Shown in pieces: positions 19,628 to 25,600 of a stretch of DNA of 64,000 nucleotides. The notes beneath the pieces were generated by a model. The model saw only the letters and a list, made by a program, of their open reading frames with translations, was not told the DNA's origin and made no database searches. A program made the translations under genes and the position numbers. Origin of the DNA: Chrysomallon squamiferum (Eukaryota > Animalia > Mollusca); the NCBI GenBank assembly GCA_012295275.1, contig CM022679.1:6262001-6326000 (forward strand). The letters run 5' to 3'. Numbering within the stretch: position 1 is the first letter of the stretch; the number at the start of each line of letters is the position of its first letter.

Positions 19628-22600
19628 TCACCTGTAATGAGCATTGATAGCTCGTGCTATTACAAGTTTTCTGATTTCTGTTGTTCCAGCTCCAATCTCA
19701 TACAGCTTAGCATCACGAAGTAGTCTTCCTGTTGGATAATCATTGATGTATCCATTCCCACCTAAAGAAATCAAATAAAAAAAAATATATATATATAAAC
19801 AAAATGTATATATATAGGGCTGAAACCTTGAAATAAAAAAAATAAAAAATACACACATTAATTATTTATACTTTTGAAAATTATGTTATTTAATTTTTTT
19901 CCAACATAACTTAGAAATGGATAAACCATTTAAATTCTACAAGTGATTGTAAGCTCTTATATGTGAAACTATTTCTTTCTGTGCAGCAGGGGAAACTGAG
20001 AAATTATTTTTTTGAAATAATTATTTTAAATTAACATAAAAATACTTTTTTTAGTCTGTAAATTTGAAAATGCTACTTGTCTTTTTTTTTTTAAATATGA
20101 TTTTCAAATATTTTTCCAAAGATTGTGCAGTATGTGGATAGCAAGTAGATTATTAATTAAACTCACCTAAAATCTGGATAGCATCTAGTGCCATTTTAGT
20201 AGCTGCTTCTGCTGTGTACATAATTGCACCTGCACAATCCTAAAAGTAAACAAACTTGTTTTCTGTGTAATTTGAAATGTTTTGTAGATTTATATGTATT
20301 CAAAGATATTGAATTTGCAACTGTTGCAAAATTATTTGGAATCTATATTAAGAATAATAAAGAATACAATACAATACAATACTACTTACAAATAACATTC
20401 TTACACAAACACACAAACAAATAATCAGATACTTAACTACACATGCATGCAGGTATAAATTGTCAAAAATCAGTAATTTAAAATAATTTTTTATTTAGTT
20501 TTTTAAGAAAAGACAACAATCATGAACTTACATTTGGATGTCTCTCTCCTCGGTCAAGAGCTCTTGCTACATTGTACACATAGGATCGACTGACATTCAT
20601 CTGTGTGTACATGTCAGCCATCTTAGCTTGAATCATCTGTAAATACACAAAATTTACAATATCAGACACTTTAAAATGGCCTGCAAATTTGAGTGTTTTG
20701 AATAAAGCTGTTAAATACTTTATTTCATCTTGCTAATCATCATTCCATCTATTTTGATGTCTGCAGCAACAGTCTGATATGCATATTACCAACAGAGCAT
20801 CTGCACAGCTTAGAAGGAATACTGCTGCTGATGAATTATATTTTAAATGATGTAATACACTGAACTTCTGATTCAACAAAATATCTTGTCAACAGTACAG
20901 TTCTGCTTACCTGGAAGTGTCCAATTTTTGTTCCAAAACATTCTCTGTGATGAGCATATTCAAAAGCCACATCACAGCAAGCCTGCATGATTCTAAAAAA
21001 AAAAAAAAAAGAATTTAAAAATAAATAAATAAATAAATTCTTCATAAAATATTTAAATATAAAATTATGGGTGCATCCACACACAAATAATCCATTGCAG
21101 CTGTCCCCAGGAATCAGGATTGCTTATGGATTATATATATATATATATATATATATATATTTTTTTTAATATATTCAGTACCTTTTTTTCTTTTCTTTTC
21201 TGTACATATATATGCTGATAATATAATTGCCAGGAAAATTGTATAATTACTATCTTCACATGCTAAAGTGGAGAAAAAAATTCATTGCAACCTGGTTCAA
21301 CCAAATGAAAATTAACAGTAAACACTCTTAGAAAAATTGAATATCTGATGATTTCTTATGTTGGTGTGAAATACTGTGATCACTCTTGGGTGAAGGTAAT
21401 TAGGACATGCAAATAAGTTGGATCTCAGGTCAGTGGTGACAGAAATATCAAATTAGGTCTTACTTATAAATGCTAATTTCATACTTTACAGATAAACTTC
21501 AGCTACATTTATTTTAAGAAAATTTGTTTAGTCATATAGAACATCATTTATCAAACTTAAAGTTAGTTTTAAAATGCAGAAGCAGGCAGAACAATGTTTA
21601 ATTGTATTAAAATTTAAATACGCATGACATCACAAAGCTGTCTCAACAAAACCAAATAAACATATCATTTAATAGTACTCTATATTTATTACTTCAACAA
21701 AATATACATGTTTCAACACTACAAATAACACATTTTAAAATAAACGACAAATACCTCAACAATTCAAATTAACATCTCATAAATACAAACATGATATTCT
21801 ACTGTCACTATAACATGTCTCCAAGTAACCAAAACACTTCAAAAATATACATTCAACACAACACATACCTCTAAAGCACAAAATTATTTCAACAATACTA
21901 TCATACTATCTTAACAATGCACTAACAGCACATTTCAAAACATTAATACAAAACATGTTATTTACAGCACAATAACAGTTGTGAGAAAACTTGATGCATA
22001 CAAACAAATAAACAGGTGTGGAGCTTACTCACCCTAGACATCCAGCTGATAAAACACATCGTTCAATATCCAATCCTGACATCAACACATAAACACCTTT
22101 GTTCTTTTCCCCCAACATATTCTCTTCTATAATTAGACAGAAGATGTTAAATATAATTATTAAATTCTTTTTTATAATAAAAATATAATTTATCAACTCT
22201 AGCTGAATGCATATAAAGAGCTGTTAAACGAAATAGATATTTCTTATTTTTAAACACAAACATTGTTCTGCCTGTTCTAGCACCTTCAGAAATGTATTGT
22301 AGTTTTTAATCTCTCAGATTCTACTGTATACAAATACTGAAGGATAAAATGAGGAGTGTGCTCAGGGTTAAGAAATAGTGAAACAAAAGCCTTATTAAAG
22401 AAATTTTTGAAATCCTTGCTCTTACTCATTTATTATACATTTTCCATTTCTAAACTCATCACTTAAAGTATGACATACGAAATACCAGCTTGATATGCCA
22501 AAATGTATGTGCTATTTATGGTTGGAGGAAATTACGTGAAATAAGAACAAATGCTGTTTTGGAATTCTCACCCTAGAGGAGCAGAGGCACCTAGGCCTCG

Positions 22601-25600
22601 TTCAATATCAAGGCCAGACATTAGGATATATACACCATGATTTTCTTCACCTAGCAAGTTCTCCACTGTGAACAGCAAAATACATATAAAAGTCTTGGAG
22701 ATATATATACAGCAGAATCTGAGAAAATTTGAGATTAATTAATTAAAAAAAATAATCATTATGTGCATCATATATATCGATATAATTTTTTTACTTTTTT
22801 AGTTGTGTGTGTGTATGTGTGTGTGTGTGTGTGAGAGAGAGAGAGAGAGAGAGAGAGAGAGAGAGAGAGAGAGAGAGAGAGAGAGAGAGAGAGAGAGAAA
22901 GAGAGAGAGAGAATAAAATTTTTAACTGGTTAGAACAAAATAAAATATTTAATTCTTGAAACACAGGTTTTTTTTCTAAATACCTGGTACTTTGCAGTCT
23001 TCAAAAACCAGTTCTGATGTGTTAGACCCTCTCATTCCCAACTTATCCAGTTTCTTGCCTGGATGAAATCCTGGCATATTCTGTGTGAATAAAATATGTC
23101 CATTGAATTACACAAAGAAATACACTTGTTTATATGTTATAAAAATCACAGGGTCCAATCTCAAAAAAATATATGATGATTTAAACTTACTTTTTCCACT
23201 ATAAATGCACTTATACTTCGAGCTGGTTTGTCACTGTTGATATCTGTTTTAGCATAAACAACCAATACGTCAGCATCTGGTCCATTTGTAATCCAAAACT
23301 TAGTACCATTTAATACATAATGATCACCTAAAAGAACAAATTAAAAAATTACTGGCTATTTTCTATACAACAGTATATCAGAATTTTTAAAATGCATTAA
23401 AAAGCAAATAAACAAATAAATAAACAAACCATGGATAGATTGGTTCCTCAGGGGGTTTTTTTTTCAGAAAAATAGATTACAAATGGTAGGAAAGAGATAA
23501 CCTGAATTATACAGCTGGTGAAAAAGACTCTCTAAGAAGGAAATGTTATGTGCACTTATAAACTGGTTAAAAACCAAGTGACAAAACAAACAGACCATCA
23601 ATGATCTAGATTCACAAGATCACATTTTTAATGAGAACTACATAACTGAATTTACTTAATAAAGATCTTACATTTTTTCACCAATTAGGTTATTGAAAAA
23701 CAGAATTACAACTGAAACAAATATAAATCACTTTGAAAGTTTATATATTCAGGAATAAATTTTATATTCTGATTTGATTAAATATGATTTGTGTGCATAA
23801 AGGATTGTTTTCTATAGCAATATTAACTGATAAGGATTTTCTACTGTATCCTACTTTTTTTCTCTCCCCCCAACAGTTAGATAATTTTTATCCAAGAATA
23901 TAAAAATATCTCAATAAAATGATTACATACACAAAAGAATATACTGTTAATTTTTTTAAATGATATGAAAATGGTTTCAACATATGTTAAATCCTTGGTA
24001 TGAAATTTCAGATTTTTAAGTAAAAGTCACTTACAATAACATTTCATCAGTGTCCACATTAAAGACTTTGAAGCCTTATACTAGGTCCTCACCTTTTTTC
24101 TCAGCTTTAAGCTTCATGGATACCACATCAGAACCTGAATTAGGCTCACTCATTGCCAAAGCTCCAATATGTTCTCCACTGATAAGCTGATCAAATAAAA
24201 ATAAGCAGATATTTTTCATTTGATTTTTTTGACAAGATATTTTTTTTAATTTGGTATTTATTACTTCTTGGGTTGATCTTTTTCTCAGTTGATCTTTAGT
24301 ATACATTTTATTTTCTTGATTTTATAATGTGCTTGTTATTGGGTAATAATCTTAGATAAATCATAATCTAATATTAAAAAGAAATCATACAGTGTTACAA
24401 GTGATGCCACTACTGTATAACCCTGATCAAATAGAAACAGTCCAGATGATTATCCCATAAGCAATCAGTAATAAGTAATTGCACTAAAATGCAGCCAAAT
24501 ATGTAATAGAAAGGAAAAATAAATAATAACCTTTGGAAGATATTTATCTTTCTGTTGTTCATTCCCATTTCTGACAATCTGATTAACACAAAGATTGGAA
24601 TGAGCACCATAGCTGAGAGCAATAGATGCACTAGCTCTGGACATTTCTTCCATAACCAGAACATGATCCAGATATGACATCTCTGATCCTCCATATTCAT
24701 CTAAGAAAAACATGGGGAAAAATACAGATATCATTTCTGATACAACAAAATTATGCAGTTAGTAAAAACGTGTGATAAACTAGATTTGATTATACTTTGT
24801 TATTAATATTTCAGTTCTGACAATGAAATTCAACTGAAGTTGAACCATATACCTGTATGTGAGCAGAAACAGAACAGCTCATCTTGAATGATTCAGCATG
24901 ATAAAATGTATCTTCTGTATACTTCATAGCAAGTTAGTACTGTACTTAATTATATTTTCTTACAAATACACAAATAATATTGATTACATGCCTCCCAAAA
25001 TAATTTTTGTTTCTCAAACAAACAAAAAAATAAGGATTTCAATTTTAAGTATATAAAATAAATTGTAATTATAAATAAATAATCTAGTCTTAATATATTA
25101 TTTATTGCATCTTAATAGAATAAATAATACTTCTTACTTGGAGCTGTGATACCATGGAGACCCAACTCTCCACATTTTTTCCAAAATTCCTGAAATTTAT
25201 AACACATGATATTCAAAATATAGTGAAGCCAAAACTTGATATTTGTCAGTTATGATGTGACTGTTTAGTGCAACAGATAACTAAAAATGAGTTTACACAC
25301 TTTTAGCAGACAGTTTTGTTACTTAATACCAGTATGTGCTGAAACAACAAAATGAAATGCTTGTGAATAAACATATATTGATAATAGTGCTGTTCAGGGT
25401 TTTTTAATCAAATGTAAACATATACATATACAGTACCATATTTCTGTTTTAATATTTAATATCTCAAAACATTCAATAATAATTGTTATTCGATGAGATA
25501 CATTTAAGTTTAAGGGATGATGAGGTCAGACGGTTGAAATATGCTGCTGGAAGGTATCAAGCTTTGAGTGTATGTTCCAATGTATTCACCAGAGCCTTTG

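Follow-up and report, generated by a model that had tools for sequence, protein, structure and literature searches.

A conserved pair of mutually exclusive catalytic exons in the IVD gene of Chrysomallon squamiferum, with a candidate change of acyl pocket

Results

The window analyzed here is a stretch of 64,000 nucleotides from the Chrysomallon squamiferum genome (assembly GCA_012295275.1, contig CM022679.1, positions 6,262,001 to 6,326,000), and it carries on its minus strand a whole gene for isovaleryl-CoA dehydrogenase (IVD) with 12 exon positions, the eighth of which is duplicated. The IVD exons of the window are closest to the IVD of Gigantopelta aegis (343 of 384 residues identical), followed by Haliotis (328-331). 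The two copies of the eighth exon, 8a and 8b, lie in tandem and have the same length (94 nt), the same phase and AG/GT ends, with 59 of 94 nucleotides identical; a scan of their flanking introns found no trace of a third exon copy. RNA contigs covering 21850-22740 were taken from four runs of one study (X1-X4), and exon joints were read from the loose ends of the contigs, which record presence only and drop rare forms, so that rare double inclusion would escape. Runs X1, X3 and X4 each yielded two 148-nt contigs, one with 8a and one with 8b, whose loose ends matched exons 7 and 9. Run X2 yielded a 1156-nt contig with 8b and no 8a contig, to which we give no weight given that the data are presence-only. 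A joint between 8a and 8b was not listed among the RNA contigs of the four runs. Translation of a transcript including both exons meets a stop codon inside 8b, and skipping both would shift the frame, given that 94 nt is not divisible by 3; products of either kind are likely degraded. An earlier reading of this DNA, made from the sequence alone, had proposed that splicing acts as a switch here, and the contigs, in which each exon is singly spliced, agree with it. Given their equal length and phase and the transcripts that carry one or the other, 8a and 8b are mutually exclusive exons from a tandem duplication.

Residues are numbered as in mature human IVD (chain 1ivh_A; precursor numbering is 32 higher). 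Past the shared stretch LMSGLDIER, the exons differ at seven residues running (GLGASAP in 8a, CVLSAGC in 8b) and rejoin at LG, just as the sequence-only reading had described. Both motifs lie on the minus strand, and a run of seven within 11 differences over 30 codons was reached in 0.3% of 200,000 shuffles (p 0.003). Differences upstream of this block had been called few and mostly conservative; they are few (four in 20 whole codons, L/M, E/K, H/K and I/V, plus V/E at the split codon), but the second description was only about half right. Silent differences in 9 of the 19 identical codons indicate that the copies are old yet constrained at the protein level. Residue 258, the fourth after the catalytic E254 in the alignment to 1ivh_A, is Gly in 8a and Leu in 8b, again as claimed.

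In the cryo-EM study of human IVD, L127 and L290 (L95 and L258 in mature numbering) form a bottleneck that excludes C7 and longer chains (PMC12369846), which supports the earlier claim that L258 limits pocket depth. In the same source, the beta-methyl branch is accommodated by G406/A407 (G374/A375), and CoA is bound by M280, D284 and R287 (PMC12369846). M248, D252, E254 and R255 are retained in both exons of the window, and the shared exons retain L95, A99, L103, G374 and A375, all residues of the IVD-type pocket. The depth barrier of the IVD subfamily, L95 with L258, is complete in the 8b form and incomplete in the 8a form, which has G258. The likeness to human IVD (PDB 1IVH, 8SGR, 9JQ3-9JQ5) takes in the predicted fold and each of these conserved residues, together with L258 in the 8b form; human chains have the Leu258 form only, whereas the 8a form has G-L-G at 256-258. 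The 8a form is thus a product of the IVD gene that is set apart from canonical IVD enzymes by its incomplete depth barrier. NCBIfam makes no distinction between the two isoforms.

The same exon pair occurs in 14 other species, among them gastropods, bivalves, the brachiopod Lingula and the ribbon worm Tubulanus. When 20 protein pairs were compared, 18 differed solely at positions -21 to +9 of the catalytic Glu and all 18 differed at residue 258, while the two remaining pairs, from Littorina and Argonauta, were without the 258 switch. We tabulated the positions in 15 pairs: the window, two Haliotis, Plakobranchus (both copies within one mis-predicted protein), Pecten, Ruditapes, Dreissena, Mya, Mytilus edulis, four oysters, Lingula and Tubulanus. 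The table omits three more Mytilus species and C. angulata (near copies), Mizuhopecten (a single partner) and a third exon of Ostrea. The pairs differ at 256 in 14 of 15 cases and at both 257 and 258 in every case; at 259, 260, 261 and 262 they differ in just 7, 6, 1 and 7. The switch is therefore the triplet 256-258, which reads L/C-V/I/F-L in canonical exons and G/A/T/C-L-G/A in alternative ones, and the earlier emphasis on all seven residues holds for the first three and not for the four that follow. A check that had been proposed was whether the Gly is kept in orthologous alternative exons, and a small residue at 258 is indeed kept in three phyla (G in 13 and A in 2 of the 15, against L in all 15 canonical exons). 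Alternative exons also have L at 257 in 13 of 15, D252, E254 and R255 in 15 of 15, and M248 in 13 of 15. Among 292 motif occurrences in 289 proteins, residue 258 was L in 260, G in 24, I in 4, A in 2, F in 1 and V in 1, and all 26 cases with G or A belong to molluscs, Lingula, Tubulanus, or members of mussel and oyster clusters. The alternative copy stands ahead of the Leu copy in the mis-predicted Mytilus and Plakobranchus proteins and in an animal contig described below (L024), as it does in the window. We considered that the duplicate exon could be redundant and its differences mere drift. Positions 259-263 and 239-242 do vary freely and run X2 yielded an 8b contig alone, but the same 256-258 signature recurs in three phyla, Leu258 is near-invariant in the other retrieved IVDs, and the silent changes noted above mark the copies as old and constrained, so that this explanation is close to refuted. 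Exons 8a and 8b form a real active-site splice switch, expressed and widely conserved.

RefSeq carries such isoforms as automatic annotations, all named IVD and with no function assigned. The IVD X1/X2 (X3) entries of Haliotis, Pecten, Ruditapes, Mya, Dreissena, Mytilus, oysters, Lingula and Tubulanus share the exon pair, its boundaries and the 256-258 switch with the window. They differ from it at residue 262, given that the window has Pro in the Gly exon and Cys in the Leu exon (22043-22038 region) whereas the Leu exon has Pro in 14 of 14 other pairs. Cys262 among Leu exons was seen only here and in Gigantopelta, and Pro and Cys seem to have changed places in this lineage relative to the usual pattern. 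A literature search found no published account of the IVD isoform pair, with most subscription journals and supplementary exon lists outside its reach, and a 40-residue stretch of 8a used as a search query matched just two distant proteins. In a tree of the 30-residue exons the 15 Gly/Ala exons fall on one branch with support of 98/98, a circular result in that the trait columns were included; without columns 256-258 the Gly/Ala exons scatter, with 7 changes, and a single clade is not rejected (p-AU, approximately unbiased test, 0.43). A single origin of the alternative exon is likely, though not proven by the tree. A third exon type, with Val or a similar residue at 258, occurs in Ostrea edulis X3 and in fragments (P0042, P0297, P0309, P0316, P0323, P0327), which gives three pocket versions in some species. 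Within a set of Mytilus proteins (P0033, P0141, P0145, P0147), the helix-E motif was unmatched in P0033, and P0145 and P0147 have Ser where His100 is usual.

AlphaFold models of the Gly258 and Leu258 twins of Ruditapes, an orthologue of the window protein, were compared as one model each, through secondary-structure strings. Mean confidence, as predicted local distance difference test (pLDDT), is 87.5 for the Gly258 isoform and 87.7 for its Leu258 twin. The Gly258 model superimposes on 1ivh_A with a template modeling (TM) score of 0.98 and a root mean square deviation of 1.1, and its best Foldseek matches are human IVD. The equal pLDDT and the TM score make misfolding of the Gly258 form unlikely, and a normal IVD fold is predicted for it.

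The introns around the pair contain two predicted RNA stems, A (elements U and M1), which encloses 8a, and B (M2 and D), which encloses 8b. In a ranking of 66 intron pairs of the IVD gene, from which part of one intron was omitted, B and A rank first and second (-36.0 and -33.8), with the other 64 averaging -19.7 (standard deviation 3.0), and each was stronger than 30 of 30 shuffles. A possible weaker second partner of U also exceeded 30 of 30 shuffles, yet an unrelated intron pair reaches -26.5. M1 can also be paired with a U-like element that follows 8b, but too weakly (-12.8) to be kept. In Drosophila serpent, exon 4 is under bidirectional RNA pairing through four intronic elements, backed by conservation and compensatory mutations (PMC4691838). 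The layout in the window is similar, with one element upstream, two between the exons and one downstream, so that two stems form with a single exon inside each; the difference is that the stems were validated in serpent, whereas here they are predicted from one genome. The animal contig L024 (10-4611; 5499-5526) has at least three tandem IVD exon copies, with Ala258, Gly258 and Leu258. A single downstream site in it pairs with two sites upstream, at strengths reached in 0 and 1 of 200 shuffles, a docking-type pattern whose sequence is unlike that of the window stems. Based on the predicted stems and their serpent-type layout, two intronic duplexes likely steer the choice between 8a and 8b.

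Prokaryotic genomes were searched with a degenerate IVD pattern that calls for a small residue at 258, which produced 21 matches. Ten were betaproteobacterial genes resembling IVD, in which residue 258 is G or A and G374/A375 are retained (L001, L004, L005, L006, L010-L013, L018, L021); the other 11 were unrelated proteins or chance matches. Two kinds of cluster surround these genes. The Gly258 genes L001 and L004 adjoin a long-chain-type CoA ligase, a FadH/OYE-type reductase and hydratases, with an ABC transporter in the cluster, whereas L005, L010, L018 and L021 lie in clusters of the TetR/PaaK-like ligase/carboxylase pair/hydratase kind. In this second kind, a carboxyltransferase accompanies the PaaK-like ligase beside the Ala258 genes L005, L010 and L018, the clusters of L005 and L021 include a biotin carboxylase, and that of L010 includes a BadH-family dehydrogenase scoring above the cut-off. 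A Leu258 IVD exists as a separate gene in three of five such genomes searched. The bacterial paralogs resemble the 8a form in their IVD motifs, their small residue at 258 and their G374/A375; unlike it, they are separate genes in catabolic clusters, most of them with extra helix-E changes, and the resemblance is probably convergent. By analogy, the clusters would fit a bulkier beta-branched acid and name none. Their assignment as atu (citronellol) clusters was unsupported, as the candidate AtuA gene is a PaaK-like ligase. Citronellyl-CoA and phytol are candidate substrates for an enzyme of this kind, and a literature search linking either one returned nothing relevant.

Feature coordinates are collected in Table 1. 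Elsewhere in the window, translation points to a gene at 894-12600 (+) that presumably encodes a proline-rich protein with repeated motifs resembling PDZ-LIM proteins, to what we take to be an unconventional myosin at about 33100-41600 (+), and to a presumed PPxY-motif protein at 57629-60030 (-).

Table 1. The IVD gene, its duplicated exon and the predicted intronic pairing elements (window positions)
Feature	Position	Strand	Remarks
Whole IVD gene, ATG to stop	19628..26468	-	12 exon positions, eighth duplicated; ATG at 26468
Exon 4	24531..24700	-	Shared; holds pocket residues L95, A99, L103
Exon 7	22984..23080	-	Constitutive neighbor upstream of 8a/8b
Exon 8a, alternative catalytic exon (Gly258)	22572..22665	-	94 nt; RNA contigs of X1, X3 and X4 join it to exons 7 and 9
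Catalytic Glu254 codon, exon 8a	22601..22603	-	Alignment to 1ivh_A
Codons 256-258 of exon 8a (G-L-G), conserved switch	22589..22597	-	Gly258 codon 22591-22589
Exon 8b, canonical catalytic exon (Leu258)	22033..22126	-	94 nt; RNA contigs of every run join it to exons 7 and 9
Exon 8b codons	Glu254 22064-22062; Leu258 22052-22050	-	Alignment to 1ivh_A
Exon 9	20911..20992	-	Constitutive neighbor downstream of 8a/8b
Exon 12, coding part	19628..19761	-	Shared; holds G374 and A375, room for beta-methyl branch
Element U, upstream arm of predicted stem A (encloses 8a)	22704..22726	-	Helix of 23 bp at about -34 kcal/mol; pair probability averages 0.94
Element M1, partner of U	22310..22332	-	Predicted pairing
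Element M2, upstream arm of predicted stem B (encloses 8b)	22257..22286	-	17-nt perfect inverted repeat; -36 to -39 kcal/mol
Element D, partner of M2	21571..21600	-	Predicted pairing
Possible weaker second partner of U, uncertain	21797..21826	-	10-mer in common with M1; -23 to -26 kcal/mol

Discussion

We propose that 8a and 8b are mutually exclusive catalytic-helix exons, likely picked by two competing intronic RNA stems. Inclusion of 8b would give an IVD with the usual Leu258 floor. Inclusion of 8a would give a likely active dehydrogenase with a roomier pocket that prefers bulkier or longer beta-branched acyl-CoAs. By side-chain volume, replacing Leu with Gly would free space for roughly four carbons, and the preference for beta-branched chains would follow from G374/A375, which both forms have in common. 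Pocket enlargement, activity of the 8a form and substrate class are what we infer, and a changed substrate range of the 8a form is the best reading of the data, one that we hold to be somewhat probable.

Several observations weigh against this proposal. The second floor residue, L95, sits in a shared exon and is unchanged, which caps any deepening of the pocket. The alternative exon was not seen in cephalopods, a chiton, Patella, caenogastropods, Aplysia, Biomphalaria, annelids or flatworms, a weak negative since it concerns retrieved proteins, mostly cluster representatives. Seven of the 10 betaproteobacterial paralogs are of one sequence type, with helix-E changes besides, and they are uncharacterized. 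Stems A and B do not overlap and are both present in the lowest-energy fold, and competition between them is assumed by analogy with serpent. Exon 1 contains a T6 run (26373-26378, minus strand) with a one-base frameshift relative to Gigantopelta IVD, probably a homopolymer error of the assembly. In this species 8a has Ala at 261 (22582-22577 region), where all 261 background proteins and 14 of the 15 alternative exons have Gly. Lastly, helix G of the Ruditapes models is broken at residues 288-289 in the Leu form but at the catalytic Glu-Arg, 283-284, in the Gly form, and pLDDT over the block falls from 83 in the Leu form to 75 in the Gly form. The simple picture of a removed Leu may therefore be wrong, in that 256-259 may shift register, Ala/Ser259 may take the floor place and the catalytic Glu may be moved.

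These models bear on two other explanations. The first holds that G-L-G shifts helix G by one residue, so that Glu and Arg255 move and the shape of the pocket changes and not its depth, favoring for example alpha-branched or straight short chains. The break at Glu-Arg assigned by DSSP in the Gly-form model would fit such a shift, and Leu257, present in 13 of 15 alternative exons, could stand in for the canonical Leu256; against this, the evidence is a single model of each form, read as secondary-structure strings with moderate local confidence, and the floor residue is small in either register (Gly258, or Ala/Ser/Gly259), so that some enlargement is still expected. We consider this explanation unlikely. 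The second holds that the 8a form is a subunit of little or no activity, which would adjust leucine breakdown by entering mixed tetramers, or that its role is noncatalytic. A glycine-rich stretch beside the catalytic Glu could loosen the helix, in keeping with the lower local pLDDT and with Ala261 in this species, but if the subunit were dead, the Glu should be missing in some of the species, and D252, E254 and R255 are complete across the alternative exons, with M248 in most. This makes a weak or inactive subunit very unlikely.

Mutually exclusive exons that remodel the active site of a metabolic enzyme have a precedent. Exons 6a and 6e of coq-2 are likewise of the same length, occur in molluscs, and switch the substrate of another enzyme, as proven by genetics in that case (PMC7434440). 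By analogy with coq-2, the 8a form could be a hypoxia form with a changed direction, redox potential or kinetics, such as an enoyl-CoA reductase fed by rhodoquinone via ETF/ETFDH, and with its substrate little changed. Molluscs make rhodoquinone and switch coq-2 by exons of this kind (PMC7434440), ETFDH is reversed in rhodoquinone-making animals (PMC8659336, whose accessible text does not mention IVD), and the alternative oxidase of oysters has a duplicated exon that is induced by air exposure (PMC5589949). The conserved change in IVD, however, lies at the pocket floor, away from the FAD contacts that the accessible text of PMC12369846 lists. The coq-2 exons also extend to nematodes, flatworms and annelids (PMC7434440), where the retrieved proteins showed no alternative IVD exon; every IVD retrieved from the rhodoquinone-using members of these groups, as proteins and not genomes, has Leu258. 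We regard a hypoxia form as improbable, and the changed substrate range remains our preferred reading.

A more far-reaching and quite tentative idea, which we think doubtful, is that the Gly258 exon has encoded an unrecognized animal acyl-CoA dehydrogenase within the IVD gene since early lophotrochozoan evolution. This enzyme would give access to a carboxylase-dependent pathway for beta-branched acids that are bulky (isoprenoid or alicyclic) and come from the diet or from microbes, a task that falls to separate paralogous clusters in bacteria.

In summary, IVD is commonly taken as a one-substrate housekeeping enzyme of leucine breakdown with a near-invariant pocket floor, and here one gene gives two pocket versions, three in some species. 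The pair provides a natural test of the role of Leu258, in two proteins about a dozen residues apart, and it is a new candidate outside insects for control of exon choice by RNA pairing. That the alternative form has been kept in molluscs, a brachiopod and a nemertean suggests that oysters, mussels, clams and abalone have an acyl-CoA substrate or a metabolic mode that has gone unrecognized.

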